Shown: positions 5,837 to 64,000 of the stretch, piece by piece
Layout of the letters: each line of letters begins with the position of its first letter
Position numbering within the stretch: the stretch's first letter is position 1
DNA from: Ignavibacteriales bacterium
GTDB lineage: Bacteria > Bacteroidota > Ignavibacteria > UBA10030
Reading direction: 5' to 3'
NCBI GenBank assembly: GCA_026390585.1
Contig: JAPLFP010000365.1
Location: 6,768-70,767 of the forward strand
DNA: 64,000 nt
Notes under the pieces: generated by a model
The model's input: the letters and a program-made list of their open reading frames with translations, nothing else
The model's database searches: none
Told to the model about the DNA's origin: nothing
Program-made: the position numbers and the translations under genes

Positions 5837-5886
5837 TAGAAAATCATTCGGTTGTTGAACTGAACGAAATTCTGAAAGAGGGGTGA
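5837..5886 (+). pseudogene. Relic 3' end of a Gfo/Idh/MocA oxidoreductase gene
   Basis: Reads ENHSVVELNEILKEG*, versus ENHSVIELNDILKAE* at the end of the 27686-28702 gene. 46/52 nt are identical over 5837-5888 vs 28653-28704. Confidence 0.8.
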
Positions 5887-5990
5887 CCATGAGACCATCT
5901 CGGAGGAAGTTCCTCAACACGGCCGCCTTGACAATGGCGGGCGTTGCACTTGCCCCAAGGGAAACACTCGCGGAATATGTGCCTGATGAC
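5837..5990 (+). repeat. Copy 1 of a 154-nt dispersed direct repeat (oxidoreductase tail plus Tat leader)
   Basis: Manual ungapped alignment to 28653-28806 gives 129/154 identical nt. Confidence 0.9.
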
Positions 5991-38859: not shown

Positions 38860-39860
38860 TACTTGTTGCCGCGTTAGTTCTTCTCGCGGGTATGCCTTCG
38901 GCAGCTTTTCAGCAGGAACATCAGGAGAAAGATCAAGGGAAGAACTACTATGCCGTTGTGTTTCTCAATCGGGGGAGCCTTACAGGGGGAACTCAAAGAA
39001 ACGTTGGGCTCTTCAAACGTCCCTTGGGAGACACGATTTGGACGAATATCTATGGCCGAAACCTTCTCAGCTTTGGCCTTGGCATCTGGGAGGGAAAATC
39101 CAGCAGGCGGCACTACATGGCGGTGGGAAATGGTCTTCACCAATCCGTTGATGGAACGAAGTCGTGGCGTATTCTCACAGATTGGCATACCGAAGAGATC
39201 CTCTCTGTAGCGCCGGATCCAATCGATTCTGCGGTGATCTACGTCTCGACGCCGTTCGGCGTCTTCAAATCTATTGATGAGGGACGCCACTGGGAAAAGA
39301 AAATGAGCGGGATGAAGAAGTGGTTTGTGAAGAAGGTTGTCATCGATGTGAACAATCGACAAAAGCTCTTTGCGGTTGCAGAAGAAGATGTGTATCGATC
39401 GACCGATTCCGGTGAACACTGGGAACCGTTGCACGCGGGACTCACGGATGTTCAGTCTTTTGCTCAGGATCCCGCGTTTCCGCAACACCTGCTGACTGGC
39501 GGTGAAGACAATGGCATTCGTTTGAGTCTCGATGGAGGCGGCACATGGCAGGCTGCCCGGGGTGTCCCGAAAGCATCGTTCTACGCGATAGCCATTTCGC
39601 CCGATGGGCATACAGCCTACGCGGGCGGCTTCAAGACCGGGCTATGGACGAGCACAGACGACGGGGTGTCGTGGAAGCTATTGTGGCAAAACCCCGATAT
39701 TGAAGCTATTTCAACGATTTATGTACACAAAAACGACTCAAGCCACCTGATGATAGGAACAAGCGGCCAGGGGATCTACGAATCGCTGGATGCCGGCAAG
39801 ACATGGCGCTCTGCAGGATTGCAGGGCTGTCAGGTGAGACAAATCGAACTCTATCCTTAG
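38838..39860 (+). CDS. Secreted BNR/Asp-box beta-propeller (paralog B)
   Basis: Sec signal; SIDEGRHW, STDSGEHW, SLDGGGTW, STDDGVSW, SLDAGKTW. Confidence 0.8.
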   Translation: MAAITKLVLVAALVLLAGMPSAAFQQEHQEKDQGKNYYAVVFLNRGSLTGGTQRNVGLFKRPLGDTIWTNIYGRNLLSFGLGIWEGKSSRRHYMAVGNGLHQSVDGTKSWRILTDWHTEEILSVAPDPIDSAVIYVSTPFGVFKSIDEGRHWEKKMSGMKKWFVKKVVIDVNNRQKLFAVAEEDVYRSTDSGEHWEPLHAGLTDVQSFAQDPAFPQHLLTGGEDNGIRLSLDGGGTWQAARGVPKASFYAIAISPDGHTAYAGGFKTGLWTSTDDGVSWKLLWQNPDIEAISTIYVHKNDSSHLMIGTSGQGIYESLDAGKTWRSAGLQGCQVRQIELYP

Positions 39861-39874
39861 AGAAGGTATCTCCT

Positions 39875-40924
39875 ATGATTGAAGAATACAAAAAGGTGAG
39901 GCATCGCTGGAATGCTGCATGGTCTTCGTTGATTCCAATTTCGGTCTTTGTCCTGGTCGTGATGCTTCCGGCAAATCTCCTGTCGCAAGAGTCAACGGTC
40001 TACGCCTCAGTTCTGTCGACGAAACTGTTTGTCGTAGGGGCTGCAAATCCCGAGACCGGAGTCTTCTATAAAAAGACCACAGATGACACCGTATGGCAAC
40101 ACACAGGGCCGAAAAACATCCGTGATTTCGGACTTGCGGTCCATGCGCCATCACGAGGTCAGCTGATTTGCATTGCCGCCGGCAATGGAGTTCACAAGAC
40201 AACCGATGGTGGCAAAACATGGAAGACGACAACGGGATGGCAGGTTACCGAAGTTCTGAGCGCGGCAATTGACAAGGCGAATCCCGACTTCATTCTCTGC
40301 ACAACCCCCTACGGTGTTTTCAGGACAATGGACGGCGGAGCAACGTGGGCGGAGTGCAACAACGGAATCAAACATGTCTTCGCGTCATCCGTTCTTATCG
40401 ATCACTCAGACTCAAACACGCTGTATTGTTCCACAGAGGACGGCGTGTATAGAAGCGGAGATCAGGGAAATTCCTGGAAGCGCACCGGGTTGAGCGTAGA
40501 TGGCGTCAGAGTGGTTGTGCAGCATCCAAAGGATCCGAATACTCTGTTTGCCGGGACCGACAATTACGGTATCTACATGACCCGAAATGGCGGTAGGTAC
40601 TGGGAGAAATGTGCGGCTGGCCTGGATCATCAAACGTTCTACGCGATCGCATTTGACCCCAACAATCCGCAGGTACTCTATGCCGGCGGGTATGTCACCG
40701 GAGTGTATAAATCAATCGATGGCGGACAAAGCTGGAGGCGAATGAATGAGGGGTTGACGAATCTGAACATTCATTCTCTGGCTGTCGATCCGACGAATAG
40801 CAATCGTGTCTACGCAGGAACGCTCTGGAGCGGTGTGTTTTGTTCGCTCGATGGCGGTGCCAGTTGGCGCTCTGCGGGATTAACCGGTTCACAGGTATGG
40901 ACAATTACGGTACAACCATTCTAA
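39875..40924 (+). CDS. Secreted BNR/Asp-box beta-propeller (paralog C)
   Basis: AGAAGG RBS before ATG 39875; TTDGGKTW, TMDGGATW, SIDGGQSW, SLDGGASW. Confidence 0.8.
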   Translation: MIEEYKKVRHRWNAAWSSLIPISVFVLVVMLPANLLSQESTVYASVLSTKLFVVGAANPETGVFYKKTTDDTVWQHTGPKNIRDFGLAVHAPSRGQLICIAAGNGVHKTTDGGKTWKTTTGWQVTEVLSAAIDKANPDFILCTTPYGVFRTMDGGATWAECNNGIKHVFASSVLIDHSDSNTLYCSTEDGVYRSGDQGNSWKRTGLSVDGVRVVVQHPKDPNTLFAGTDNYGIYMTRNGGRYWEKCAAGLDHQTFYAIAFDPNNPQVLYAGGYVTGVYKSIDGGQSWRRMNEGLTNLNIHSLAVDPTNSNRVYAGTLWSGVFCSLDGGASWRSAGLTGSQVWTITVQPF

Positions 40925-40940
40925 CGAGGAAGTGCTGACC

Positions 40941-42761
40941 ATGAACGTCAAGAAGTTCTTTCTGATTCTGACTCTGTTTGCTCTTCAGAGCGCGAACGCA
41001 CAATTGGTCTCCCGGGAGACATACCTCAAGGAGTTTGAGAAACGTGCTTCGTTTGTCACCTCCATCTACGACACCGCTCAGTCGTCGGGTTATTACCAGG
41101 CTGCGGTGCGGTATGCGCACGGAAAAGACATTGCTACCGCGGACAAAATGGTAATCGAGCTGCTTCGCGATCCCCGCGGTGACATGTTCTGGATGATCCC
41201 GGCGATCGGAACGTATCTTCAGGGTAAAGACAGGATGTCACCCGAAGCGCGTGCAGCGATGCGCAATGCGTGGAAAACCTACGCTCCGTACCGCGGTGAC
41301 ACGGAAAATCATTGGTGCATGTACCACGCGTCCCTCTTTCTCGCAGCTGAGCAATGGCCAAACCTTCCCGGTTCAGAGTGGTATAACGGAAAGAGTTCAG
41401 AGGAAAATCTCCGAGACGCGAAAGAATATCTCATTCACTGGATGAATATCACCACCACGATTGGCCAGGGCGAGTTCGATTCCCCGGACTATTTCCCCGA
41501 GTACGCAATGCCGATGATCCTGCTGAGTCAGTTCGCCAAGGATCCGGAGATGAAAACCCGAGGCGCGATGATGGCGGATTACATTTTTGCGGATTTCGCG
41601 GTCGAGCACCTGGAGGGCCAATACATCGGTGGATACAGCAGAATCTATCAACCGGCGGTGTACAAGCCGCTGCTCTCGGGAGCCTCAGCGTTTGCCTACC
41701 TGTATTTTGGCACTGGTGAACCGACGAACTCGGGCTGGATTGTCCTTCCCGCCCTTTCGAACTACCGTCTTCCTGAAATTATCTACTCCATTGCTCTGGA
41801 CCGAAGCAAGACCTATGTCCATCAGGAACGAAAGCGTGTCCGCAATGTCATTCGTTTCGGTGCAGAAAAAAATCCCCCCGTCTACAAGTATTCCTATATC
41901 ACAAAAAACTATGGTATTGGCTCTCTTCAGGGGGGTATCCTTCAGCCTATTCAACAGCACACCTGGGGAGTTCGCTATACATATGGCCGTCCCTACACGA
42001 CGATTTTCGGGCTTCATCCCTATTGGTCGGCATTAGAAGTGGGCATGTTTTTCCCCGAAGAGGTGAAAACGCTTATCGCCGATGTCGTGGCATCCAAAGG
42101 GACCTACAACAATCCCGACAAATGGACTGGCGGCTCGCCATATGAGAGGACCTTTCAGCATAAAAACGCGCTGATTGTTCTCTATGATATTACCCCAGGC
42201 ACGACGACGGAGCACATTGACGGTTTCTTCCCGCGAAACCTCGAAGAGAGGATCGTTGAACCCTCTGGCTGGATTGCCTGCAAAGCCGGCGATGTGTATA
42301 TAGGGTGGTATCCGCTGCAGGAATATGAATGGAAAGAAGAATCAGATGCGAGCATCAACACGCTGAATGATATCGGAAGGCCGCAACTGGAACGGGTAAA
42401 GGAAACCGGGAACTGGCGCCTGAGAAGCTACAAGCCTCAGAATGGATATGTCATTGAAGTGAGGTCGAAGGATGAAATCGGATCGTTCGCGCAATTCCAA
42501 TCAGCATTGAACACGCATACTCCAACCGCCAAACTTCAGCCGGGAGCAGTTTCACTGCAATATGTCACTTTGAGCGGTGACAAAATGGAATTCGCGTTCC
42601 CTGAGAAGCGAACGCTCAATGGAAGCGCGATCGATCTCTCCAAGACGAAACTCTTTGAAGGACCGTTTATCAACGCTGAAGTTGGCAGCGAGAAGATGAC
42701 GATGACCTACAAGAACAAGAAGCTTGTGCTCGACTTCAAAGCAGTCAAGATCAGCGAATAG
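40941..42761 (+). CDS. Uncharacterised secreted lyase-like protein, paralog of 37033-38859
   Basis: Signal peptide ends SANA/Q. Carries the same YRGDTENHW, GQGEFDSP, RNVIRFG.EKNPPVYKY and QPIQQHTW blocks. Confidence 0.6.
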   Translation: MNVKKFFLILTLFALQSANAQLVSRETYLKEFEKRASFVTSIYDTAQSSGYYQAAVRYAHGKDIATADKMVIELLRDPRGDMFWMIPAIGTYLQGKDRMSPEARAAMRNAWKTYAPYRGDTENHWCMYHASLFLAAEQWPNLPGSEWYNGKSSEENLRDAKEYLIHWMNITTTIGQGEFDSPDYFPEYAMPMILLSQFAKDPEMKTRGAMMADYIFADFAVEHLEGQYIGGYSRIYQPAVYKPLLSGASAFAYLYFGTGEPTNSGWIVLPALSNYRLPEIIYSIALDRSKTYVHQERKRVRNVIRFGAEKNPPVYKYSYITKNYGIGSLQGGILQPIQQHTWGVRYTYGRPYTTIFGLHPYWSALEVGMFFPEEVKTLIADVVASKGTYNNPDKWTGGSPYERTFQHKNALIVLYDITPGTTTEHIDGFFPRNLEERIVEPSGWIACKAGDVYIGWYPLQEYEWKEESDASINTLNDIGRPQLERVKETGNWRLRSYKPQNGYVIEVRSKDEIGSFAQFQSALNTHTPTAKLQPGAVSLQYVTLSGDKMEFAFPEKRTLNGSAIDLSKTKLFEGPFINAEVGSEKMTMTYKNKKLVLDFKAVKISE

Positions 42762-50727: not shown

Positions 50728-51750
50728 ATGTCGCTAACAACCACATTTGTTGGTTTGACGTTGCAGAGCCCTGTGATTGTTGCCTCCGGCCCGGCGAGCC
50801 ACGACGTGAACCAGATTCGACTCGCCCAGGAGCAGAAAGCAGGAGCTGTCGTACTCAAGACGGCGTGTTCGGACAAGTACATCCACATGCGCTCCTGGCC
50901 GCGGCCCCGGTACAAACTGCTCGATTGGGATAAACAAATCGCTGGTCGCTCCAAGGCATTCAGCCTGTATGCATACGAGCAAGGATACAGTGGAACGCTT
51001 GAAGATTATTGGCAATTCATCAAGGTCTGCAAAAAGCACGCTTCAGTCCCGATCATCGGAAGTATTTTCGCGGACGAAGCTCACGAGTGGAAAGAAATGG
51101 CGGTGAAGGTTGAACAAAGCGGCGCAGATGCGATCGAACTCGACATTTCTTCACCGCATCGCCCGGGGAGTCTGGGATTTGAGAAAACGTTTGTTGCGGC
51201 GATCAAGGCAGTCGTTTCTGCGGTGAAGTTTCCAGTGCTCGTCAAACTCTCTCCCGGACCGGACGTCGTCCAGCAGTCCATCAGTGCGCAGGAATGCGGG
51301 GCAAAGGCTGTAACGCTTTGTAATCGACTTCGCGGCGTCGATGTGGATATTGAAAACCAACGACCAATTCTCCATGGCTACTTTGGAGGTATTGGTGGAC
51401 CCTGGGCGAAGTACTACACATTTCGACACGTGGCTGAAGCGGCACAGGCTGTCTCGATCCCCATTAGTGGGACAGGGGGAACGATGAGCGGGGAGGATGT
51501 CATAAAGTATATCATGCTTGGGGCAACAACAGTGCAGATCCTCTCCGTCATCATGATCAACGGGTGGGAATCGATCGGGCGAATCAACGGGGAGATCGAG
51601 CAGCACATGAAACAGAAGGGGATTTCTTCGCTCGATCAGATTCGGGGCAAAGCGCTTGAGTCTATGACCTACCCCGATGAAATTATCCGCTGGTCAGGGG
51701 AGTCGAAAAAAGGCCCCAGGAACACATGGAACGAGGAAAAGAGCGAGTAG
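50728..51750 (+). CDS. Dihydroorotate/dihydropyrimidine dehydrogenase-like FMN protein with an atypical active site
   Basis: PVIVASGP, GAVVLKT, IIGSI, ELDISSPH, LVKLSP, ISGTGG, GATTVQI. Confidence 0.8.
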   Translation: MSLTTTFVGLTLQSPVIVASGPASHDVNQIRLAQEQKAGAVVLKTACSDKYIHMRSWPRPRYKLLDWDKQIAGRSKAFSLYAYEQGYSGTLEDYWQFIKVCKKHASVPIIGSIFADEAHEWKEMAVKVEQSGADAIELDISSPHRPGSLGFEKTFVAAIKAVVSAVKFPVLVKLSPGPDVVQQSISAQECGAKAVTLCNRLRGVDVDIENQRPILHGYFGGIGGPWAKYYTFRHVAEAAQAVSIPISGTGGTMSGEDVIKYIMLGATTVQILSVIMINGWESIGRINGEIEQHMKQKGISSLDQIRGKALESMTYPDEIIRWSGESKKGPRNTWNEEKSE

Positions 51751-51767
51751 TGCGTAGGCTGAGAGCA

Positions 51768-52097
51768 ATGGACAACGAACAAGCAAAATACCCGGGACTG
51801 CCTCCGCTTCCACCTCCATTTGTCAAGGATTTCCCGCCGGTTGCGGTGGTCGTAGAGGAGAAGTGTATCGCCTGTGACCGATGTCCGCCTCTCTGCTTCT
51901 TCGATGCAATCGTGATGGAACTCCGTCCCGCGCACAAATACAAGAGGACAGCAGTTGTCATCACCGAAAATTGCACCGGTTGCGGGTTGTGTTTTGAAGC
52001 TTGTCCTGTTGACGCATTTGTATGGGTTCCCGATAAGAAGCCGGGCGCCAGGCCCTCGAAGGCAACAGGCGAATCTGAAAGAGACCTGAGTGCATGA
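51768..52097 (+). CDS. 2x[4Fe-4S] dicluster ferredoxin-like protein
   Basis: CIACDRCPPLC and CTGCGLCFEACP. Confidence 0.88.
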   Translation: MDNEQAKYPGLPPLPPPFVKDFPPVAVVVEEKCIACDRCPPLCFFDAIVMELRPAHKYKRTAVVITENCTGCGLCFEACPVDAFVWVPDKKPGARPSKATGESERDLSA

Positions 52098-52711
52098 GAG
52101 TCGTTGATCTGACACATCCGATTACATCTGAAATCCCGGTTTATTTTCCATGGCATCCACCGACTGTGCTGGAACGTACGGCGACCTATAAGGAAAATCG
52201 GTGCGAAGTACGCAGGCTGAGTATCGGCACACACAGTGGGACGCACATCGACGCTCCGAGTCATGTCCTCGAGGGGAAACCAACACTCGACGAATATGAT
52301 CCGGGGCTTTGGTACATCGATGCGCAGGTTCTTGATTTCACTCCGCGGGATCCGGGGAAAGAAATTTTGCGGGAGGAGGTGGCGGCGAAGCTCAAAACGA
52401 AAGGCGTTGGAGTGGTCATAAAAACAGGCTGGGATGCGGAGTTCGGAAAGAAAGACTACTACAAGAGCTATCCTCCGCTGAGCACATATGCCGCAGAATT
52501 TCTTGTCGAGATGAATGTCCCCGTCGTTGCCGCCGATACACCGTACACACTTGATGTGCACTATGTGCTTCTGAACCACGGTATTCCCCTGGTGACGAAC
52601 CTGAACAATACCGGGCAACTGAAAGAAGGAATGATCAAACTCATCGCGGCGCCATTGCTCATTAAAGGTAGCGACGGAGCTCCGGCACGCGTCTTGGCGG
52701 TCATCGAATAG
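52094..52711 (+). CDS. Cyclase-family (KynB-like) metal hydrolase
   Basis: VDLTHP, HSGTHIDAPSH, GSDGAPARV.A. Confidence 0.85.
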   Translation: MRVVDLTHPITSEIPVYFPWHPPTVLERTATYKENRCEVRRLSIGTHSGTHIDAPSHVLEGKPTLDEYDPGLWYIDAQVLDFTPRDPGKEILREEVAAKLKTKGVGVVIKTGWDAEFGKKDYYKSYPPLSTYAAEFLVEMNVPVVAADTPYTLDVHYVLLNHGIPLVTNLNNTGQLKEGMIKLIAAPLLIKGSDGAPARVLAVIE

Positions 52712-52719
52712 AAGATCCA

Positions 52720-53847
52720 ATGGAAGCGGCCACAAAACTCCTTTCTGATCTTGTAGCGATTCCCAGCATGAACCCCATGGGGCGCGGCCGCATGGGGAAG
52801 GAATATTGTGAGCAGTCGATTGCAGAGTTTGTCGCAGAGTTCTTGAGGAAAGCATCGATCGATGCTGAGTTACAGCAAGTCTCTCCCGGCAGGCCGAACG
52901 TCATTGGCTCTGTTTCCGTTGGTGCTCAGGAAACGCTCATGCTGGAGGCACACCTTGATACCGTCTTTGCGGATTCAATGTTGATTGATCCCTTTGACCC
53001 CATCATTCGCGATGGGAAACTCTACGGACGAGGAGCGTGCGACACGAAAGGCTCAATTGCAGCTTTCCTGCAAGCTGTGGTCAATTCGCTAAAGGCTGTA
53101 AAGAACATGCGCTATAACGTTCTTTTGCTCTTTGTCTCTGATGAAGAGTACCGTTTTGCGGGTGCCCAATATGCTGTTCGCCATGGTCTGAAAACCGACT
53201 TTGGTATTGCTGGCGAACCTACACAGCTCAGAATTGTGCGAGCCCACAAGGGAGTGACGCGTTGGAAGATCCTCACGCAAGGAGTCGCTGCTCACTCTGC
53301 CTATCCGGAGAGAGGAAAAAATGCAATTTATGCCATGGCGAAAGTCATTGAAAAGCTGCAACAGTATGCAGAAGAACTAAGCACTGGACCCCTTCATCAG
53401 TTGTTGGGAACCCCATCGCTGAGTGTTGGCGTCATCGAAGGTGGGCAGGCGGTAAATGTCGTTCCCGATCATTGCTGGATTGAAATCGACCGACGCACAC
53501 TTCCCGGTGAAACAACACAAAGTGTTCTTGAGCCGATCCATTCCCTTCTCAATGATCTTGAAGGATGCGAAATACGAGAACCGCATCTCTCTGTGGCAGG
53601 AATGGAAGTTGCCGACTACGCTCCCATTGTTCAAGACTTGGCTCAAGCGGTACGATCGGTATGCGGAGATGCTATCGTGGAAGCGGCACACTATGCGACG
53701 GATGCCGGCATCTACAATTCAGTTGGCGTGCCGACGGTGGTATTTGGGCCTGGGAACATCGCCCAGGCACACACAGAGTCTGAGTATATCGAGCTTCAGC
53801 AACTTCACCAGGCAACTACAATTATCGAAAGGTTCCTAACATCGTGA
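52720..53847 (+). CDS. M20 (ArgE/DapE-like) N-acyl amino acid hydrolase
   Basis: HLDTV, YGRGACDTKG, DEE, GEPT, HKG, AHS, GPG.I.QAH...E. Confidence 0.88.
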   Translation: MEAATKLLSDLVAIPSMNPMGRGRMGKEYCEQSIAEFVAEFLRKASIDAELQQVSPGRPNVIGSVSVGAQETLMLEAHLDTVFADSMLIDPFDPIIRDGKLYGRGACDTKGSIAAFLQAVVNSLKAVKNMRYNVLLLFVSDEEYRFAGAQYAVRHGLKTDFGIAGEPTQLRIVRAHKGVTRWKILTQGVAAHSAYPERGKNAIYAMAKVIEKLQQYAEELSTGPLHQLLGTPSLSVGVIEGGQAVNVVPDHCWIEIDRRTLPGETTQSVLEPIHSLLNDLEGCEIREPHLSVAGMEVADYAPIVQDLAQAVRSVCGDAIVEAAHYATDAGIYNSVGVPTVVFGPGNIAQAHTESEYIELQQLHQATTIIERFLTS

Positions 53848-54755
53848 TTCTCGGCCTGGACATCGGCGGTACAAAAACAGCGGTTGTTGTCGGAACAACG
53901 CGCGGGCAGATTCGCTGGCGAAAGCAATTTCCCACAATGCCTGAGCGTGGATTTCCACCAGTCTTTGCAGAGTTATCTGCATCGATACGGGAAGCTCTTT
54001 CTGGTTCACCCGAGCGAGTCGAAGCTATAAGCGTCTCGATTGGCGGTCCGCTAAACGTGCTGGAGGGGATTGTTCAATCCCCCCCGAATCTGCCTGGATG
54101 GGACAACATTCCGTTGAAGCGTCTCCTCAAAGAACAATTCGCCCTTCCCGTGTACGTGGAGCACGATGGAAATGCAGGTGCGCTTGCGGAGTTCTATTTT
54201 GGGGCTGGGAAAGGACATCGAAATATCGTTTTCCTCACGATGGGAACGGGATTTGGGGCGGGTCTGATACTCGATGGAAAACTCTATCGCGGGACAAGTG
54301 ATACGGCAGGAGAGATCGGCCACATCCGCATTGCAGAGGATGGACCGCTTTGCTATGGAAAGGCAGGATCATTGGAGGGATTTGGCAGCGGAACCGGAAT
54401 GGCAAAGCTCGCCCATACGATGTTCCCGAGGGTTTGGGGAGAAGCGACCACCATCTTGGAAGTGTACACATCGTTCACCCAGGGCTCATCAGAAGCACGT
54501 CAGGTATTCGAGCGCGTGGGATTCTCGTTGGGGCGTGCGTTTGCGATGCTTGCCGACCTGCTAAATCCGGAGCAGATTATTCTTGGAGGACTTGGAATGA
54601 GGATTGGCGACGCATTCCTTCCAAAGGCCGAAGAGATCTTTCAATTGGAAGCTCTTCCGCAGACGAGGCACGCATGCAAGATTGTCCCGGCACAACTGGG
54701 CGAGCACATCGGAGATGTCGCTGCTCTCTGTGCTGCCCTCAATCAGGGAGCATGA
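53844..54755 (+). CDS. ROK-family sugar kinase
   Basis: GLDIGGTK, EHDGNAGALAE, TMGTGFGAG, AGEIGH, GSLE. Confidence 0.9.
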   Translation: MILGLDIGGTKTAVVVGTTRGQIRWRKQFPTMPERGFPPVFAELSASIREALSGSPERVEAISVSIGGPLNVLEGIVQSPPNLPGWDNIPLKRLLKEQFALPVYVEHDGNAGALAEFYFGAGKGHRNIVFLTMGTGFGAGLILDGKLYRGTSDTAGEIGHIRIAEDGPLCYGKAGSLEGFGSGTGMAKLAHTMFPRVWGEATTILEVYTSFTQGSSEARQVFERVGFSLGRAFAMLADLLNPEQIILGGLGMRIGDAFLPKAEEIFQLEALPQTRHACKIVPAQLGEHIGDVAALCAALNQGA

Positions 54756-57091: not shown

Positions 57092-58030
57092 ATGGTAACG
57101 ACGATAACATTGAATCCCATGCTTGACAAAACGATCTACGTTGATCGGTTGGAGCGCGGGACGATTCATCGTGCGTTGAAAATGGAAATGGTCGCCGGAG
57201 GGAAGGGGATCAATGTGTCGCGCCAGCTCAAGCGCCTGGGAATCAATACCATAGCAACGGGGTTCCTGGGAGGAGAAGTTGGCTCCATCGTGTTACGATT
57301 GTTGACGGAGGAATCGATGGAACACGACTTCGTTCGCACACAAGCGGCGACACGCGAAGGGCTCACCTATCTCGAGCCTGATGGGGCATGGACGGCAATG
57401 TTTGAGCCTCCGCTCCGCGTTGAGCAGTCGTCTGCTCACGAACTAAGCAGAAAGATTGGTGAACTTGCCTCGAAGAGCACCTGGATTGTGTGTGGTGGAA
57501 GCTCACCGGGCGATGAGGCCGATGAAATTTTTTATGAGGCCATTGTTCTTGCCCATCGTAACGGAATTTCGAGTGTGCTCGATTCTTACGGTCGTGCGTT
57601 TGAGCTTGGACTGAAAGCAAAACCTACGATGGTCAAGCCAAACAAGCGCGAATTCGAAATGACGTTTCACCAATCTCTGACAACAGAATCGGACCATGTC
57701 CGCGCGGTCCAATTCCTACTGGAACAAGGCGCCCAGTACAGTATCCTCACCAATGGCGGTCATATGTTCTACGCCGGAATCCAGGGACACTTCTGGAAAG
57801 TAACGCCGCCCCCGACGAAAGCGGTGAACCCCACCGGCTCGGGAGATGCTCTCGTGGCCGGGATTCTGTATGGATTTCATCAGGGTTGGAAGTTCGAACG
57901 GTGTCTTGCATTCGGCGCAGCGGCGGGAGCGGCAAACGCCCGCGTATGGGAAGTCGCGAACACAAATCTTCAGGAAATCTTGTCACTTGAATCGAGTGTC
58001 AAAATTCAACGAGTGAGTGTTAAGAAATGA
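57092..58030 (+). CDS. 1-phosphofructokinase-type (FruK/LacC) PfkB hexose kinase
   Basis: TITLNP.LD, GGKGINVS, VKPNKRE, NPTGSGDA. Confidence 0.88.
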   Translation: MVTTITLNPMLDKTIYVDRLERGTIHRALKMEMVAGGKGINVSRQLKRLGINTIATGFLGGEVGSIVLRLLTEESMEHDFVRTQAATREGLTYLEPDGAWTAMFEPPLRVEQSSAHELSRKIGELASKSTWIVCGGSSPGDEADEIFYEAIVLAHRNGISSVLDSYGRAFELGLKAKPTMVKPNKREFEMTFHQSLTTESDHVRAVQFLLEQGAQYSILTNGGHMFYAGIQGHFWKVTPPPTKAVNPTGSGDALVAGILYGFHQGWKFERCLAFGAAAGAANARVWEVANTNLQEILSLESSVKIQRVSVKK

Positions 58031-59058
58031 ACAGAAGATTTGAGCAGGCCTTGAATTGCGAAGCTCCGGATCGGATACCATTCCTGCCGGCGATCTATGA
58101 ACACAAGGCATGGTTTGTCGGAGAAACTCCATCGAAAGTATGCCAAGACTCTCAGCTCTTCACAACCGCACTTCTGGCCGAGTATGAGCGCGTGCATCCG
58201 GACGCGCTGACAATCGGAATTGATGTCTACAATGTGGAGGCGGAGGCGATCGGATGCAAGGTGATCTACTATGAGGGGAACGATACGTCGGTTCCCGCGA
58301 TAGCACCTGAGGGCGTGGTTTTTCGAGGCTCGAAAGAGGTTGCATCGCTCAAAATGCCTGATCCCCGAAAAGACGGCAGAATGCCCCTGAACCTCGAGGT
58401 CGCCGGCAACATCATGAAAGTTCTCGGCAAAGAAGTGCCGATTCGAGCGGCCCTTTCAGGACCACTCTCACTTGCGGCACACTTGGCCGGACTGGAGAAT
58501 CTCTTCATGCTTATGTTTACCCAGCCCGATCTTGCACGCGAGCTTCTCGGTTTTGCCTGCGAAGTGATCAAGCGATATGGTCAAGCCTTTATTGAACTCG
58601 GCTGCGGTGTTGTGCTTTTTGATTCTCAAGCTTCCCCCGATTTACTCTCGCCACTTTTGTACCGTGAGTTTGTTCTCCCGAGGACGCGCGCTCTGATTGA
58701 ACACTTCCACCAGCAGGGAGTCAGGAACGTCCCTCTGATTATCGGGGGGAATACGACGAAAATGCTGGATGAATACCTCGAAACCGGTGCGAATAACGTG
58801 TTGTGTGACAAGAAAGCAGATGTAAAGGAGTTTTTGCACAAGTGTTCCGCTGCCCGTAGAGCATTCAGGCGCAATATGGATTCCACTGACTTTGCGACGA
58901 TCTCTTCTGAAGATGTTTATCGCCGCACAGTAGATTGTCTGAAGGAATCAAACGGCTATCCTGGATTCATCCTTGGCACGATCATACTACCGTACGGAAC
59001 ACCGCTCTCGGCTCTCGCTGCAATCCGGAGCGCACTTCAGGAATACAAACATTCGTAA
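58027..59058 (+). CDS. URO-D/MtaA-CmuA-like methyltransferase-superfamily protein
   Basis: DRIPFLP, EAEAIG, DGRMP..LE, GP.SLAA.L.G.E, DS.AS..LLSP..YREF..P. ATGA overlap with the kinase gene. Confidence 0.8.
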   Translation: MNRRFEQALNCEAPDRIPFLPAIYEHKAWFVGETPSKVCQDSQLFTTALLAEYERVHPDALTIGIDVYNVEAEAIGCKVIYYEGNDTSVPAIAPEGVVFRGSKEVASLKMPDPRKDGRMPLNLEVAGNIMKVLGKEVPIRAALSGPLSLAAHLAGLENLFMLMFTQPDLARELLGFACEVIKRYGQAFIELGCGVVLFDSQASPDLLSPLLYREFVLPRTRALIEHFHQQGVRNVPLIIGGNTTKMLDEYLETGANNVLCDKKADVKEFLHKCSAARRAFRRNMDSTDFATISSEDVYRRTVDCLKESNGYPGFILGTIILPYGTPLSALAAIRSALQEYKHS

Positions 59059-59074
59059 GTCGGACTAGGGCCCT

Positions 59075-59719
59075 ATGAAAGAATTGCTTGATCTTGCGCA
59101 GCTTCTGGAGCAAGGACAGTCACAGAAGGTGTTGACGTTGACGCAGCAGCTCGTAGACTCAGGGCTCTCTCCGCAGACCATTCTCAATGAAGGATTGATT
59201 GCCGGGATGGCAGTGGTCGGGGAAAAGATGCGGAACGGAGAAATGTACTTGCCTGAAGTTCTGCAATCTGCCGGTGCGATGAAGGCTTCATTGGCGATAC
59301 TGAAGCCGCATCTTGCCCGGGAAGGGACGGCATCGCGTGGGAAAATTCTGATCGGAACAGTGAAAGGTGACATGCACGATATTGGAAAGAACCTGGTCAC
59401 CATCATGCTGCAGGGAGCGGGCTTCGAGGTCATCGATATCGGTCTCAACGTGGAGCCGCAGAGATTTGTTACGGCGATCACCGAACACACACCGGCAGTC
59501 CTCGGCTTATCGGCGATGTTGACAACGACAATGTTGAACATGAAAACCACGATCGAGGCCATTGCGAGCGCGGGGCTTCGGTCTCAGGTAAAGATCATCA
59601 TTGGAGGTGCGCCTGTCAGTCAGAAATTTGCAGATGAGATCGGTGCCGACGGTTATTCACGTGATGCAGTCCTTGCTGTTAACAAAGTAAGACAATTGAT
59701 GGGCCATACCTCTTATTAG
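59075..59719 (+). CDS. mtaC: Corrinoid (B12-binding) protein, MtaC-like
   Basis: GEMYLPEVL cap domain, GTVKGDMHDIGKNLV (DxHxxG), SAMLTTT, IIGGAP. Confidence 0.85.
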   Translation: MKELLDLAQLLEQGQSQKVLTLTQQLVDSGLSPQTILNEGLIAGMAVVGEKMRNGEMYLPEVLQSAGAMKASLAILKPHLAREGTASRGKILIGTVKGDMHDIGKNLVTIMLQGAGFEVIDIGLNVEPQRFVTAITEHTPAVLGLSAMLTTTMLNMKTTIEAIASAGLRSQVKIIIGGAPVSQKFADEIGADGYSRDAVLAVNKVRQLMGHTSY

Positions 59720-59738
59720 CGCGGATAGAACACTTCAA

Positions 59739-61112
59739 ATGCAAAAGACGTTCAAGACGCTCGCGATTCCTGATCCACAACAACTCATGTTTGGTCGTAC
59801 GCCGAAACCGCTGATCTGCGGCTTCGGGCTCAAACTAGGGAACGGCCAGGTCTATCCAGAACTCAATTTCACACTTCCCACCATGGCGTTGGAAGAAACA
59901 AACTGGGCAGCCGTTGTCGCTCAATATGAAGAAATTGGATCGATCATTGAACGGGCAGCGGCGAGACTGAAACCACCAGGGCTGATGGCAGAGTTCGAGC
60001 TCTTGCCTCCGATGACCGAACATCCATCGTGGGGAGCCGAACTGACTTCGGTGCTGCTGCGGCACCTCGACCAGCTGCATAAGGATACTGGTATTCCGTG
60101 TGCCTTGCGCGTTACTCCAACGGATATCAGGGATGTGACGAAACCTCCCGAGCTCAGGTCTGGAAAACCGCTCGAGTTGCTGCTGCAGTCGTTTGAACAG
60201 TGTGCAGCAGCGGGTGCCCATGTGCTCTCGATAGAATCGGTCGGCGGCAAGGAAGTCCATGATGAAGCGCTGCTCTACGGAGACATTGAAGGGGTGATCT
60301 TTGCGCTCGGCGTCCTTGCGTCGAGGGATATGGAATTCCTCTGGGAAAGAATCGTCGCCACATGTTCAAAATACAACGTTGTGCCGGGTGGCGATTCAGC
60401 GTGTGGCTTTGCTAACACGGCAATGCAACTGGCGGGACAGGGAATGCTCCCGGAAGTACTCGCGTCTGTCGTGCGGGCTGCAAGTTCTGTTCGCAGCCTT
60501 GTGGCGTATGAATGTGGGGCATATGGACCGTCGAAAGACTGTGCCTATGAAGGTCCGGTGATCAAGGCAATTACGGGGGCACCGATTGCCATGGAGGGAA
60601 AATCAGCAAGCTGTGCGCATTTTAGTCCCGTGGGGAACGTCGCAGCGGCAATGTGCGATCTGTGGAGTAATGAATCGGTACAGAATGTGAGATTGCTTTC
60701 GGGTCCCGCCCCCGAGGCCTATTTTGAACTACTCGTCTATGACTGCCGACTCTTCAATCAGGCCCTTGAGACAAAAACAGAAAACGTGTATCAGAATCTT
60801 CTTGTCTCGTCCGATATCCATTTGAGCCCTCAAGCATATGTGTTGTCGCCCGAATCGACGATACGAATTGCATCGACCGTTGTGCGTGAGACGGGCCACT
60901 ATGCACAAACGCTTGCGGCAGCCAGAGAGGCTGCGTCTCTCTTGCGTGAAGGAGTGCAACAGGAAGAGCTTCAGTTAAACTCACGCGAAACCGAATGGTT
61001 GGAAAGAATCACGCGGGAATTGAATGCCCTTCCTGCGGACGAGCATCAAATGATTATTACCATGCAGGAGCGATATGGACATCTTTTCACAGCCAACAGT
61101 TACGGTTTGTGA
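59739..61112 (+). CDS. mtaB: Methanol:corrinoid methyltransferase MtaB family
   Basis: SIESVGGKEVHD, GVLASRDM.FLW, GDSACGFANTA, GPSKDCAYEG, EGKSA.CAH.S, DLWSNESV. Confidence 0.9.
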   Translation: MQKTFKTLAIPDPQQLMFGRTPKPLICGFGLKLGNGQVYPELNFTLPTMALEETNWAAVVAQYEEIGSIIERAAARLKPPGLMAEFELLPPMTEHPSWGAELTSVLLRHLDQLHKDTGIPCALRVTPTDIRDVTKPPELRSGKPLELLLQSFEQCAAAGAHVLSIESVGGKEVHDEALLYGDIEGVIFALGVLASRDMEFLWERIVATCSKYNVVPGGDSACGFANTAMQLAGQGMLPEVLASVVRAASSVRSLVAYECGAYGPSKDCAYEGPVIKAITGAPIAMEGKSASCAHFSPVGNVAAAMCDLWSNESVQNVRLLSGPAPEAYFELLVYDCRLFNQALETKTENVYQNLLVSSDIHLSPQAYVLSPESTIRIASTVVRETGHYAQTLAAAREAASLLREGVQQEELQLNSRETEWLERITRELNALPADEHQMIITMQERYGHLFTANSYGL

Positions 61113-61200: not shown

Positions 61201-63534
61201 ATGCCAACGATTCTTGATCATCTGACGCAAACAAAGGCCATCCACACCACCTCCTCGTCCGTCAAGGTGGAGCAAACCGTCGCTCATGAACTGAAGATCC
61301 TGATCGGAGGCCGGGTGGAGATCAAACAAGCTCCTGGATTAAATGCACCCGCCGGCACAGTGCGACTTGGTGTAGTCCAGGAAAAGTCCAGGTGGCGATC
61401 AATCCATCCCTCTCTGGATGGAACCCAGGATTGGATGATAGCGAGAGTGAAAAACGGAGGGGGAGTAGAGCTCCTGTCCTCTCGCCCGCATCTCCTCTAC
61501 TATCTGTTCGCGCAATTGACCGAGAATTGGAAGGGAGAAGATGTCCTGCAATTTGCGGACGGCAGGATTCTTCATCCATCGTTCCGTAATCTTCGTCCGG
61601 TCTATGATCTTTTCCTTACGCAACATGCGCGCACGGTGCGTAATTTCGATCGCGAAGAACACGTCCGAAATCTTGCCCGTATGGGATTCTCGCATGCAGA
61701 AGTCAATGGGTTGGCATTCGCTGTTCCGTTTGAGCGTGGTCCCCAGGGAGAACTGCTTCACCGATTTTATACGTACTGCCCCTCTCTCGATCAATTCGTC
61801 TCCAGCCGTCTGAACAAAGGCACCTATGACGACGACTATTTGCAGGCAAATCTAAATCTTCTGAAAACAAATGCCGCCCTTGCAGAGAGATATGGCCTCG
61901 AGCCCGGAATGGTATGCTTTGAGCCGCGGTCCGTGCCCGATAACCTGCTCCAGAAGTATCCGATGCTCCGCGGCGCGCGGGTTGATCATCCGATTCGAAG
62001 CTGGCATCCGCGATTCAATCTCTCGATTGCACATCCGGTCGTACGGGAGCACTATGCGGAAATGATGGAGAAGATTCTCCGGGAGGTACCAAGCCTCGGT
62101 TACATCTCTGTTTGGTCAAATGACAGCGGTGCCGGATTTGAGTACACAAGTTCGTTATATGTGGGGCGCAACGGCGGTGGCTACGTCATCCGCGAATGGA
62201 AAGGCGATACCGAAATTGCCGAATCGGCTGCCAACAACCTGATGCGATTCCAACGACTCCTTCGGGACGCTGGCCGAAAGGTCAATCCGAAATTCCGCAG
62301 CCTGATTCGTTTGGAACCCTTCTGGGCAGAACACGAGTACATTTGGAAGCAGCTCGGCGACGGACTCGATGTTGAAGTCTCATCATTGTTGACCAAGGGG
62401 TGGGGACTGGCGTACAAACACCCCAAATACAAAGAAGCTCGTGAAATTCATGGGACGGCGCTTCATAACAAGTTTGTCGATGCGGAGAAGCCGGTGATCG
62501 AAGAGCTTCGGCAGAAGAAATCAGATGCCGATGTGTACTTCAACCCCGGCATCATCTGGAACCATGAGCCACTCATTGGAATTCCATTCCCGCATCTTGT
62601 ATGCGACAAGTTGACGGATATGCACAAACAGGGGGTTACAACGCCCTGCTACAATGGAAGCGCGACGCCTCCATCGTTCGCACCGTACAATATTAACCAG
62701 GAAGTGGTGCGAGCGTATCAGGGCGATAGCGCTCTGGACCTCGAGGCCTTCCTGCAGAAAAAGGCAGGAGAATGGATTGGCGAACACCTTGCTGCAGACC
62801 TGGTGAAAGTCTGGAACCACTCGGATGAGGCATACCGGTCATTTCCCATTCCCATCTGGATCTATTCGTCCTGGGGAAACTGGTACAGGCTTTCGACGCG
62901 ACCCATCATTCCGAATGTCGAGGCTATTTCGGAAGCGGACCGCGAATACTATGAACAGTTCCTGCTGGCAACATCCCACAACAGGTGTCGTGTGGACTTT
63001 AGGTATGATGTAGGATTCGACCTTGTTGACCCGGCTCACGCACTGCACTGTGTGCAACTGATCGATCGGGATCTTTTCCCGCATATGGAAGCAGCATTGA
63101 AACTGCTTCGTCACATGAAAGACCGCGCCACGACAGATGCAGCACACGCTTGCATTACAGACGTGACAGACAGAATGCGAGGATTGTACTGCTGGTACCG
63201 AACGCAACGCAACGTGGCGGCCTGGGTGGCAGGAGTGCACGGCTATCTTGAATCGAAAGAGAAGAAGGTCAGAAAAGAATGCCGCAAGCTTCTGAAAGAC
63301 ATGGTGCTGGATGAAATTGAAAACACGAAACGATTGCTCGAACTCTGGGAAACCTCCAAAACCAACTGGATGATTCTTTCCGCGGTCGGGGAGACGACAT
63401 TCATTTACTATGACAACTTTGGCGAGCAGTTGAAGCGAAAGATCGCACTGATGAAGGGGCATGAGAACGATGAACCATATGTGGATCCGAACTTCCAGTG
63501 GCGTGTACCAGGATTCACTGATGTGAAACGATAG
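61201..63534 (+). CDS. Uncharacterised cytoplasmic GH-like protein with an extra N-terminal domain, paralog of 5889-7862
   Basis: AAGGAG RBS, no signal peptide. Shared blocks begin at about residue 125 and run to the C-terminal EPY.DPN..WR.P. Confidence 0.65.
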   Translation: MPTILDHLTQTKAIHTTSSSVKVEQTVAHELKILIGGRVEIKQAPGLNAPAGTVRLGVVQEKSRWRSIHPSLDGTQDWMIARVKNGGGVELLSSRPHLLYYLFAQLTENWKGEDVLQFADGRILHPSFRNLRPVYDLFLTQHARTVRNFDREEHVRNLARMGFSHAEVNGLAFAVPFERGPQGELLHRFYTYCPSLDQFVSSRLNKGTYDDDYLQANLNLLKTNAALAERYGLEPGMVCFEPRSVPDNLLQKYPMLRGARVDHPIRSWHPRFNLSIAHPVVREHYAEMMEKILREVPSLGYISVWSNDSGAGFEYTSSLYVGRNGGGYVIREWKGDTEIAESAANNLMRFQRLLRDAGRKVNPKFRSLIRLEPFWAEHEYIWKQLGDGLDVEVSSLLTKGWGLAYKHPKYKEAREIHGTALHNKFVDAEKPVIEELRQKKSDADVYFNPGIIWNHEPLIGIPFPHLVCDKLTDMHKQGVTTPCYNGSATPPSFAPYNINQEVVRAYQGDSALDLEAFLQKKAGEWIGEHLAADLVKVWNHSDEAYRSFPIPIWIYSSWGNWYRLSTRPIIPNVEAISEADREYYEQFLLATSHNRCRVDFRYDVGFDLVDPAHALHCVQLIDRDLFPHMEAALKLLRHMKDRATTDAAHACITDVTDRMRGLYCWYRTQRNVAAWVAGVHGYLESKEKKVRKECRKLLKDMVLDEIENTKRLLELWETSKTNWMILSAVGETTFIYYDNFGEQLKRKIALMKGHENDEPYVDPNFQWRVPGFTDVKR

Positions 63535-64000
63535 TGCCGACGAAGATTGTTATAGCGCCAGATTCATTCAAGGGTTCACTGACCGCTCACGAGGCAGCCT
63601 CTGCGATGGAGCAGGGGGTGTTGCAGTTACTCCCGGATGCTCATATCCTCAAGCATCCTGTCTCCGACGGTGGTGAGGGCCTGGTTGGTGTTGTCACTTC
63701 GGCACTGGGGGGATGTATTGTGACAACGAACGTCAGCGGACCGCTACCGGGCCAGCGTGTCGATGCCCGGTGGGGTCTCTCCTCAGATGGCTCGTTCGCA
63801 ATTATCGAGATGGCAGAGGCAGCAGGGTTGACTCTTGTTCCCGCTGATCGACGAGATCCAAAAATCACGACGACGTACGGAGTCGGAGAACTCATCCGGG
63901 CTGCCCTCGATGCCGGCGTTTCTTCCATTGTGATTGGAATCGGTGGAAGTGCCACCAATGATGGCGGCGCTGGGATGGCGGAGGCGCTTGGGGTCAGATT
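63534..64000 (+). CDS. glxK: Glycerate kinase (GlxK/GarK family), 3'-truncated by the window edge; not in the ORF track
   Basis: GTG overlaps the previous TAG. Translates KIVIAPDSFKGSL..SDGGEG..IIEMAEAAGL..TTYGVGE..GIGGSATNDGGAGM. Confidence 0.9.
   Translation, partial: MPTKIVIAPDSFKGSLTAHEAASAMEQGVLQLLPDAHILKHPVSDGGEGLVGVVTSALGGCIVTTNVSGPLPGQRVDARWGLSSDGSFAIIEMAEAAGLTLVPADRRDPKITTTYGVGELIRAALDAGVSSIVIGIGGSATNDGGAGMAEALGVR

Follow-up and report, generated by a model that had tools for sequence, protein, structure and literature searches.

What does a homologue of the methanol:corrinoid methyltransferase MtaB do in the middle of a sugar-catabolic operon? The question is raised by a stretch of 64,000 nucleotides (the window) from an Ignavibacteriales bacterium (assembly GCA_026390585.1, contig JAPLFP010000365.1), where a gene for an MtaB-family protein (P0003) stands together with genes for a protein of the uroporphyrinogen decarboxylase (URO-D)/MtaA superfamily (P0001) and for a corrinoid carrier (P0002). 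The window is part of an 85-kb contig in a metagenome-assembled genome (MAG) of 4.7 Mb that is 95% complete and whose closest public relatives are fen and sediment MAGs labelled Ignavibacteriae or Bacteroidota. The answer that we favour, with a probability of about 0.4, is that the trio would be a self-contained corrinoid methyl-transfer module for the sugar pathway of the operon, in which the URO-D-like protein faces the sugar and MtaB releases methanol. As a genomic pattern the finding is well supported, while the chemistry is a proposal; in particular, we infer the sugar as methyl donor, which role falls to which methyltransferase and, most of all, whether MtaB takes up or releases methanol.

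Family membership and motifs of the trio

The three genes are adjacent on the plus strand, as an earlier note on this DNA described them, in the order URO-D-like, corrinoid and MtaB, which is the reverse of the order in the title of that note. They are separated by spacers of 16 nt (URO-D-like/corrinoid) and 19 nt (corrinoid/MtaB), and the ATG of the URO-D-like gene overlaps with the TGA of a gene for a PfkB hexose kinase as ATGA (58027-58030). This overlap had been seen before, together with the glycoside hydrolase (GH)-like and glycerate kinase genes 3' of the trio, which were found again as a gene for a 777-aa protein and a PF02595 gene, and with the SIES, ACG and KDC motifs of MtaB and the DxHxxG motif of the corrinoid protein, all of which can be read in the translations.

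P0003 gives a near-gapless alignment with MtaB of Methanosarcina barkeri (2I2X chain A; 311 bits, about 38% identity), which is the one characterised MtaB used as reference in this comparison. The predicted zinc ligands E166 (SIES), C222 (ACG) and C268 (KDC) align with SVES, DC and KDC in 2I2X, are invariant across 9 relatives, and have as counterparts Glu164, Cys220 and Cys269, which we take to be the zinc ligands of the M. barkeri enzyme (Hagemeier et al. 2006). The active-site blocks are kept as well. Among the 156 positions that are invariant in the clade, 57 differ from M. barkeri, including some near the ligands (A221/D, F224/Q, A269/G and F295-S296-P297/S-D-V), and the majority of these differing residues are also found in distant bacterial MtaB genes. 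Against the NCBIfam equivalog NF040651, P0003 scores 427 bits, below the cut-off of 720.

The carrier P0002 combines a B12-binding Rossmann domain with a helical cap domain and has the DxHxxG motif in the form GDMHDIG. Its top NCBIfam model is MtgC-like (MtgC_2, 222 bits against a cut-off of 370), and it reaches 194 bits against 215 for TIGR02370 and 125 bits against 420 for MtaC.

As to P0001, its best named matches in NCBIfam are MtaA/MtbA models, with 108 bits for MtaA/CmuA (TIGR01463, cut-off 235) and 110 bits for NF004889 (cut-off 244). In an alignment of 57 bits with MtaA (4AY7), LIIGGN stands opposite LHICGN, the His-x-Cys zinc ligands being absent, and the distal Cys region of MtaA reads GFILGT; the earlier note had pointed to LIIGG and GFILGT at these sites, and the translation indeed contains PLIIGGNT and GFILGT. 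An identity as HemE was rejected (TIGR01464, 44.5 bits against a cut-off of 303), and relatives hold a separate hemE-grade match with an E of about 1e-140. The present genome (G000) has no hemE-grade URO-D match, its best E being 1e-63 as opposed to about 1e-140 in nearly all relatives, and the true hemE is probably on a piece of the genome that was not assembled. All in all, the proteins of the trio, each well under the NCBI equivalog cut-offs, are members of their families and not orthologues of the methanogen enzymes.

Association with sugar genes and other methyltransferases

The trio belongs to a block that is conserved across the family at 60% to 94% protein identity. The block starts with a DHOD-like protein, a cyclase-like protein, an M20 deacylase, a ROK kinase, a lyase-like protein and PfkB, continues with URO-D, the corrinoid protein, MtaB, the GH-like protein and glycerate kinase, and ends with EamA, Gfo/Idh, an NTP transferase, a galactokinase-like protein and SSS. 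That the trio is kept inside the same sugar array across the family supports the favoured reading. The upstream part of the block, from the DHOD-like gene to the ROK kinase, has the same order in loci L012, L013, L016, L020 and L024-L031. In one relative (G024; L012/L041, JAZDJN010000087) the corrinoid gene alone is lost, the interval from the URO-D-like gene to MtaB being about 325 bp, and two other stand-alone corrinoid proteins remain in that genome. In another (G039), MtaB is located between the ROK kinase and deacylase genes with no adjoining corrinoid gene, and a URO-D gene comes after the kinase.

A scan of one genome per species returned at least 584 relatives of MtaB. The best 80 of these, at 53-94% identity, come from Ignavibacteria, many Acidobacteriota (Terriglobia, Bryobacteraceae, Solibacter), Planctomycetota, Roseiarcus, Calditrichia and others, and none of the 80 is from a methanogen or an acetogen. 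In other phyla, too, MtaB relatives stand beside sugar genes and not away from them: the same-strand neighbours of MtaB outside the Ignavibacteria are mostly PGM/PMM, sugar porters, RhaT, SSS symporters, sugar-binding proteins, galactokinase, Gfo/Idh/MocA, rhamnosidase-like proteins and oxygenases (FA_desaturase-Rieske fusions, PhyH). C1-pathway families are absent from the 25 most frequent neighbour families listed. In the 95%-complete genome studied here, neither acetyl-CoA synthase (CdhC/ACS) nor MtrH was found, for which reason Wood-Ljungdahl methylotrophy was rejected, and this absence and the sugar-gene neighbours in other phyla both favour the proposed module. Thus, the general claim of the earlier note that the trio handles glycan-linked methyl groups and does not serve ordinary methylotrophy is borne out by the synteny in the family, by the sugar genes beside MtaB elsewhere and by the lack of acetyl-CoA synthase.

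The typical order in Acidobacteriota is DUF6580, corrinoid protein, (URO-D), MtaB, DUF1638, RACo (2Fe-2S plus ASKHA) and a long URO-D, where the counts of corrinoid genes are lower bounds owing to gene calling at high GC. An HMM search of the present genome did not find DUF1638. At some Acidobacteriota loci (e.g. L084:3638-5920, L051 and L071), the MtaB/corrinoid/RACo cluster and a sugar porter are repeatedly accompanied by PhyH dioxygenases and an FA_desaturase-Rieske-FNR fusion of 760 aa, which may demethylate the same substrate in an alternative, oxygen-dependent way.

Trios of other lineages keep MtaB and differ in their URO-D subfamily, whose motif reads HxHVCG in G014 and G023, CCG in G027 and G035, and HICGNT in Acidobacteriota. 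Because MtaB is kept across lineages and the URO-D subfamily is swapped, P0001 would confer the specificity, and MtaB would be the partner that the trios have in common. In characterised corrinoid systems, it is the substrate-specific methyltransferase I (MT I) that varies, and complete systems of donor, carrier and acceptor canonically have the corrinoid gene between two methyltransferase genes. By analogy, P0001 may be the sugar-facing methyltransferase of the trio, with MtaB as a partner that is shared. Indeed, the substrate-facing MT I of aryl O-demethylases belongs to the URO-D superfamily (PMC8630106, PMC9768040).

A scan of metagenomes was seeded with the GH-like family instead of MtaB and gave 80 loci. 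The 777-type of the hydrolase has a URO-D, corrinoid or MtaB gene directly upstream in 27 of the 44 loci with room for one, and directly downstream in 0 of 40. When the loci with at least 4.2 kb of upstream sequence are considered (n = 29), 7 have the full trio, 5 have URO-D and corrinoid, 6 have URO-D alone, 1 has URO-D and MtaB, and 10 have none of these genes; the 19 loci that hold any of them thus have URO-D in all cases (19/19), corrinoid in 12 and MtaB in 8. The URO-D gene that adjoins the 777-type hydrolase is nearly always of the P0001 type that lacks the zinc ligands (Zn-less), and the 659-type hydrolase is directly followed by a URO-D of the 'HLCG' subtype in 8 of the 12 loci with room downstream. 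The hydrolase is therefore constantly accompanied by URO-D, whose type changes with that of the hydrolase, and the corrinoid protein and MtaB are optional inserts.

In the URO-D tree, the Zn-less proteins are monophyletic (32 tips, support 1.0) and are placed in the half that contains short, MtaA-sized proteins. Library representatives with an E up to 0.001 numbered 2247; of the best 150, the site was read in 110 full-length sequences and was IIGG-like in 53 and H-x-C in 32; the Zn-less subfamily is large and uncharacterised. Two Cys of P0001 (C260 and C273) as well as H26 and E25 of a Tyr-Glu-His-Lys block are invariant among 32 close relatives. As candidates for a substitute metal site, the two Cys are weakened by wider representatives, in which C260 is variable and C273 mostly lost.

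The remainder of the genome, searched with HMMs built from trio-type loci, contains further methyl-transfer genes, for a complement of 1 MtaB, 19 URO-D-like ORFs, 3 stand-alone corrinoid proteins plus MetH, and 1 RACo. The 19 URO-D paralogues have H-x-C in 14 cases, H-x-D in 3 and H-N-D-A in 1 (contig C125), P0001 being the sole paralogue to lack the His too. The only RACo corrinoid activase heads an L-rhamnose operon on contig C139 (L106:172-13347, minus strand), where RACo is joined by a permease, a GH78 rhamnosidase, URO-D, RhaA, a rhamnulokinase-like FGGY kinase, an Fe-S protein and another URO-D, and this composition suggests that the operon handles methyl-rhamnose. Contig C338 (L115:3-3338, minus strand) encodes a 1112-aa URO-D::GH3::PA14 fusion with a complete GH3 and an H-x-D variant of the URO-D-like domain, that is, a putative methyltransferase physically fused to a glycosidase, and a gene for a stand-alone homocysteine S-methyltransferase (L115:3385-4260) directly precedes it. 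In addition, C295 has a sugar ABC importer followed by two URO-D genes, and C206 has a corrinoid protein, a PfkB kinase, a lyxose-isomerase-like protein and URO-D, then a GH78-like protein and another URO-D. The embedding of URO-D paralogues in sugar operons on C139, C338 and C295 favours the reading of the trio as a sugar module.

With respect to the outlets for the methyl group, the earlier note had seen no pterin-binding methyltransferase (MeTr), Wood-Ljungdahl gene or reactivase in the window. This holds for the trio's contig, on which RACo, pterin-binding MeTr and acetyl-CoA synthase were searched for and not found, and does not extend to the genome, which has RACo (C139) and a MeTr-like gene (C131) and lacks the carbonyl branch of the Wood-Ljungdahl pathway. 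The MeTr-like gene is a weak match (48 bits, cut-off 25.5) on C131 (L117:3102-6496), with an MTHFR gene a few genes downstream whose end overlaps a corrinoid protein gene; the cluster looks like an outlet for methyl-corrinoid on the side of tetrahydrofolate (THF), reminiscent of cmuB/metF. Together with RACo and the stand-alone homocysteine methyltransferase, it contradicts the idea that THF and other methyl sinks are lacking.

The distribution of these genes among relatives is also informative. Within the order (41 genomes), MtaB is present in 17 of the 17 genomes with at least 4 URO-D hits, and the 23 MtaB-free genomes have 0-3 hits. Within the class (301 genomes), at least 4 URO-D hits occur in 15/20 genomes with MtaB as compared with 15/281 without it, corresponding to an odds ratio of about 50, where the counts are lower bounds as 6 candidates were scored per genome. 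The tracking of the URO-D expansion by MtaB favours the proposed module. The 15 MtaB-free genomes of the class with at least 4 hits led us to reject MtaB as the obligatory sink for all URO-D systems; MtaB is strongly associated with these systems and not essential to them. A MeTr-like gene is present in 13 of the 41 genomes of the order and is absent from G014, G023, G032, G035 and G039, all of which have MtaB. Stand-alone homocysteine methyltransferases are common. G014 and G023 have the URO-D-corrinoid-MtaB trio and lack RACo, a MeTr-like gene and a stand-alone homocysteine methyltransferase. Other relatives have whole clusters of URO-D, corrinoid protein, homocysteine methyltransferase, MeTr and RACo without MtaB, e.g. 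on contig C23 of G012.

The flanking array and the probable substrate

All genes called in the window are on the plus strand and make up one huge glycan-catabolic array (Table 1). Its transport genes include a TonB-dependent receptor, a sugar ABC importer and SSS symporters, and its catabolic genes include several sugar kinases, GH38, GH3, rhamnosidase-like and heparinase-like proteins, BNR proteins, an FAH/enolase-superfamily pair and more. Beyond the glycerate kinase, tblastn with genes of relatives placed an EamA transporter, a Gfo/Idh/MocA-like protein, an NTP transferase, a galactokinase-like protein and an SSS symporter on the contig.

Table 1. Positions in the window of the trio, its flanking genes and a related gene pair
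Feature	Position	Strand	Basis or remark
Tat-exported paralogue of the 777-aa GH-like protein (659-type)	5883-7862	+	42% identical
Second URO-D-like gene, H-x-C kept ('HLCG')	7914-9065	+	directly after the Tat-exported GH paralogue
Conserved upstream block	50728..54755	+	Pfam and NCBIfam matches
DHOD-like	50728-51750	+	member of the conserved upstream block
Cyclase-like	52094-52711	+	member of the conserved upstream block
M20 ArgE/DapE-type deacylase	52720-53847	+	member of the conserved upstream block
ROK kinase	53844-54755	+	member of the conserved upstream block
Secreted polysaccharide-lyase-like protein, 747 aa	54827..57070	+	(alpha/alpha) toroid plus beta-sandwich (Foldseek)
PfkB-family hexose kinase	57092..58030	+	PF00294, 137 bits; TIGR03168 'hexose kinase', 257 bits (cut-off 216, passed)
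URO-D/MtaA-superfamily protein P0001, 343 aa	58027..59058	+	PF01208, 157 bits, positions 3-346 of 346
Corrinoid (B12) carrier P0002, 214 aa	59075..59719	+	PF02310, 98 bits; PF02607, 70 bits
MtaB-family methanol:corrinoid methyltransferase homologue P0003, 457 aa	59739..61112	+	PF12176, 520 bits, positions 2-459 of 460
GH-like protein, 777 aa, predicted cytoplasmic	61201..63534	+	GH138/GH67/GH115-type fold (Foldseek, low-confidence model)
Glycerate kinase, truncated by the window end	63534..63998	+	PF02595, 206 bits

The two large proteins that flank the trio and its kinase have no sequence match in Pfam, NCBIfam or the PDB, and their folds were sought through AF2 models. For the 777-aa GH-like protein, in which no signal peptide was found, a model of pLDDT 61 from a shallow alignment gave as its top Foldseek match the GH138 enzyme 6hzg (RG-II alpha-galacturonidase, E 4e-10), with TM-scores of 0.25-0.35 over the matches. 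This was followed by GH67 alpha-glucuronidases at an E of about 1e-6, one of them complexed with 4-O-methyl-glucuronic acid, and then by GH115, GH20 and GH84. The fold looked for in this comparison comprises a helical bundle, a TIM barrel and an alpha/beta domain at the N-terminus. The 747-aa lyase-like protein, which has a signal-like N-terminus and is syntenic in relatives, gave a model of pLDDT 53, again from a shallow alignment, that matched alginate lyase 6jpn (E 6e-9), heparinase III, PL17 and PL15. Because of these uronidase-like and lyase-like matches, the local substrate probably contains uronic acids, which we regard as a lead. The Tat-signal paralogue of the hydrolase and the H-x-C URO-D-like gene that follows it are also a recurrent pair, found again at metagenome loci L186-L193.

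Other features of the array stand apart from the trio. Three tandem BNR/Sortilin-type genes (36044-42761) alternate with a pair of paralogous ORFs, each about 610 aa long (37015-38859 and 40932-42761), for which no Pfam match was found. LarA-type (lactate-racemase-like, nickel-pincer) and DUF4432 genes (21515-22795 and 26619-27689) are located beside an IclR regulator; LarA homologues of sugar loci are mostly uncharacterised racemases or epimerases. Finally, a 390-aa antisense ORF on the minus strand (51683-52855) lies over the conserved cyclase-like and deacylase genes and is almost certainly spurious.

Routes of the methyl group and known systems

In the favoured reading, a methylated sugar or small oligosaccharide would be imported and the sugar released in the cytoplasm by the GH138/GH67-like hydrolase. 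P0001 would then move the sugar methyl to Co(I) of P0002, and MtaB, with its zinc site intact, would pass it from methyl-Co(III) to water, so that methanol leaves and Co(I) is regenerated. The net reaction would be sugar-O-CH3 + H2O -> sugar-OH + CH3OH, without oxygen, on a methyl ether or possibly a methyl ester. The demethylated sugar would enter the kinase-led catabolism that is coded around the trio, and carrier oxidised to Co(II) would be repaired by the RACo of contig C139. According to our own estimate from tabulated free energies, the hydrolysis of an alkyl ether would be roughly thermoneutral at standard conditions and favourable at millimolar or lower concentrations, and therefore the reversed half-reaction of MtaB would be feasible if methanol stays low. 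One may speculate that a uronate methyl ester, with a carboxylate as leaving group, would be the easier substrate in chemical terms and would agree with the uronidase- and lyase-like proteins nearby.

Several points weigh against this reading. To our knowledge, the sole known physiological direction of MtaB is the capture of methanol, and the conserved active-site blocks of P0003 would fit methanol as the ligand and are silent on direction. A release of methanol would not be needed either, because alternative sinks exist in the MeTr-like, MTHFR and corrinoid genes of C131, the homocysteine methyltransferase and MetH. Many of the metagenome loci that pair the hydrolase with URO-D have no MtaB, and the MtaB-free genomes G236 and G051 contain about 30 URO-D candidates each. 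By motif and alignment comparison, P0001 has no recognisable Lewis-acid site for the activation of an alkyl methyl ether, and its Zn-less clade is placed among MtaA-sized proteins that, by analogy, resemble acceptor-side (MT II) enzymes. Moreover, the fold assignments of the hydrolase and the lyase are leads that come from poor models (pLDDT 61 and 53). The second of the two options in the earlier note, with the URO-D-like protein acting on the sugar and MtaB on methanol, gains independent support from the constant presence of a Zn-less URO-D beside the hydrolase, also at loci that lack the corrinoid protein and MtaB, from the paralogues in sugar operons and from the GH3 fusion; the URO-D-rich genomes that dispense with MtaB count against it.

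The known direction of MtaB would be preserved in a methyl-harvesting network, where the URO-D-like protein demethylates the sugar and MtaB runs forward to capture methanol, and both load corrinoid proteins; the methanol could stem from, e.g., uronic acids of this glycan that are methyl-esterified. The corrinoid methyls would then leave via the MeTr-like protein to THF with MTHFR-led oxidation, or via the homocysteine methyltransferase or MetH to methionine. The parts required are at hand, with the MeTr-like protein near the MTHFR-corrinoid gene pair on C131, the stand-alone homocysteine methyltransferase by the URO-D::GH3 fusion, MetH and RACo, and the MtaB-free clusters of relatives (G012) and the MtaB-free, URO-D-rich genomes are in line with such outlets. 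We nonetheless hold this account to be less likely than the favoured one: the THF-side genes are on another contig and have a corrinoid protein of their own, the five MtaB-containing genomes named above have no MeTr-like gene, two of them (G014 and G023) lacking RACo and the stand-alone homocysteine methyltransferase as well, and the position of a methanol-capturing enzyme between a sugar-linked URO-D/corrinoid pair and a hydrolase would be left unexplained. An ordinary bacterial methanol system, with MtaB as MT I, the corrinoid protein as MtaC and the URO-D-like protein as an MtaA-type MT II that serves THF or another acceptor, is a slightly weaker candidate and in our view unlikely. It would be found in a glycan locus merely since the breakdown of a pectin-like polymer frees methanol, and the lyase- and uronidase-like folds do suggest a uronic-acid polymer that could be methyl-esterified. 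The homology of MtaB, its intact zinc ligands, the classic three-gene layout, and the MtaA/MtbA-type matches and MtaA-sized tree neighbours of the URO-D-like protein all agree with it, and the loss of thiol-activating zinc ligands would fit a non-thiol acceptor such as THF. However, in 6 of the 19 loci a Zn-less URO-D stands beside the hydrolase without MtaB or corrinoid, and it co-varies with the hydrolase subtype, which is not expected of a generic MT II for methanol-derived methyls. The wide miss of all equivalog cut-offs in NCBIfam, the occurrence of 19 URO-D paralogues in sugar operons, which argues for substrate-side roles, and the quite different URO-D subfamilies in the trios of other lineages point in the same direction.

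Chemical considerations raise the reverse assignment, where the MtaB homologue demethylates the O-methyl sugar and the URO-D-like protein passes the methyl to an acceptor. Indeed, an alkyl methyl ether can be seen as a substituted methanol that needs a zinc Lewis acid, the alkoxide being a poor leaving group, and MtaB has a zinc site whereas P0001 has none at the MtaA positions. The clade-invariant differences from M. barkeri (57/156), some of them near the ligands, and the MtaB of G039 amid kinase and deacylase genes with no adjoining corrinoid gene could be taken in the same sense. Nevertheless, an enlarged sugar pocket is not evident in the near-gapless alignment with its conserved active-site blocks, the differing residues are mostly common to distant bacterial MtaB and look related to lineage and not to substrate, and next to the hydrolase MtaB is optional and URO-D constant, so that we consider this swap improbable. 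Least probable of all, P0001 would be no methyltransferase but, for instance, a cofactor-free decarboxylase or isomerase of a sugar acid, its adjacency to the corrinoid and MtaB genes being incidental. In its original form the URO-D fold belongs to a decarboxylase, the metal ligands of MtaA are missing, some loci have URO-D beside the hydrolase without a corrinoid gene, and the flanking enzymes have uronate-type folds. These arguments are countered by the corrinoid gene directly after URO-D in 12 of the 19 informative loci, by scores of 44 bits for hemE (cut-off 303) as compared with about 110 bits for MtaA-type models, and by the link of the URO-D expansion with MtaB and of paralogues with RACo and the stand-alone homocysteine methyltransferase.

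The proposal that MtaB releases sugar-derived methanol would be of general interest. Plant, algal and microbial glycans commonly contain O-methylated sugars, such as 4-O-methyl-glucuronate, 2-O-methyl-fucose and -xylose, and methyl-rhamnose and -mannose, and the removal of these blocking methyl groups by anaerobes would be explained by a corrinoid route. The earlier note did not recognise an oxygen-independent sugar demethylase as described, and in the literature searched in full text we likewise found no description of corrinoid-dependent, oxygen-free sugar demethylation, the one sugar demethylase met with there being an oxygen-dependent P450 (see below). It is conceivable, though we would put it as a tentative claim, that the trio and its sugar-operon URO-D relatives in Ignavibacteria, Acidobacteriota, Planctomycetota and other phyla represent the first oxygen-independent, cobalamin-dependent carbohydrate demethylase, with MtaB running backwards and methanol as a product. 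Such a methyl-ether (or methyl-ester) hydrolase by corrinoid shuttle would imply a hidden B12 requirement in anaerobic glycan breakdown, tying B12 availability to polysaccharide turnover, and would mean that methylotrophic methanogens of peat and sediments have a methanol supply that has gone unrecognised. More broadly, a source of methanol (or a sink for it) that is new for methane-emitting wetlands would come to light, and oxygen-free biocatalysts that cleave alkyl methyl ethers would be on offer. MtaB-type genes of heterotrophs and MAGs have been annotated as methanol or methylamine metabolism (PMC4842900, PMC11264602), and the corrinoid route would give a function to very many unannotated 'MtaA/URO-D-like' and 'MtaB' genes in heterotrophs.

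Comparison with known systems helps to delimit the proposal. The MtaB-MtaC-MtaA system of Methanosarcina (2I2X, 4AY7) and the Mta system of acetogens share with the trio the MtaB TIM barrel with Glu/Cys/Cys zinc ligands, a DxHxxG carrier, a third component of URO-D fold and the adjacency of the three genes. The trio differs from them in its MtaB (about 38% identity to that of M. barkeri), in scores below all NCBIfam equivalog cut-offs, in a carrier nearer to MtgC/MtbC-type models than to MtaC, in a URO-D-fold partner without His-x-Cys, in a host without acetyl-CoA synthase and MtrH, in genes that are embedded in and overlap a sugar-catabolic operon, and in the proposed reversal of MtaB. The chloromethane dehalogenase CmuA/CmuB, with MetF/FolD/PurU in aerobic methylotrophs, is likewise an example of corrinoid methyl transfer outside methanogens and acetogens by a URO-D-type methyltransferase domain, and its route to THF via a dedicated MTHFR can be compared with the MeTr-like/MTHFR/corrinoid cluster on C131; unlike the trio, it acts on a methyl halide, has its MT I fused to the carrier, and has neither MtaB nor a sugar context.

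Removal of a sugar O-methyl group is known from marine Bacteroidota, where a cytochrome P450 demethylates 6-O-methyl-D-galactose in an oxygen-dependent manner (Reisky et al. 2018, cited in PMC13425298). As referred to there, this enzyme resembles the trio in that it acts in a polysaccharide-utilisation locus and directs the sugar to central catabolism, and differs in that it needs oxygen and a redox partner, yields formaldehyde and belongs to an unrelated protein family. The closest parallels may instead be found in the four-component aryl O-demethylases, such as Odm/Vdm of Acetobacterium dehalogenans, Mtv of Moorella thermoacetica, Mto of Methermicoccus shengliensis and the systems of Desulfitobacterium hafniense, which have in common with the trio and its genome an MT I of the URO-D superfamily, a small corrinoid protein, an activase of RACo/RamA type, many MT I paralogues and independence from oxygen. 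All four types of O-demethylase component are present in this genome, although here the context is one of carbohydrates, MtaB and not a pterin-binding MT II stands beside the carrier, the activase and the MeTr-like protein are coded elsewhere, the URO-D clade is separate and Zn-less, and an alkyl ether or ester leaving group is chemically unlike phenolate. Of the systems compared, these anaerobic aryl O-demethylases would come nearest to the trio in their way of working, except that MtaB takes the position of the pterin-binding MT II.

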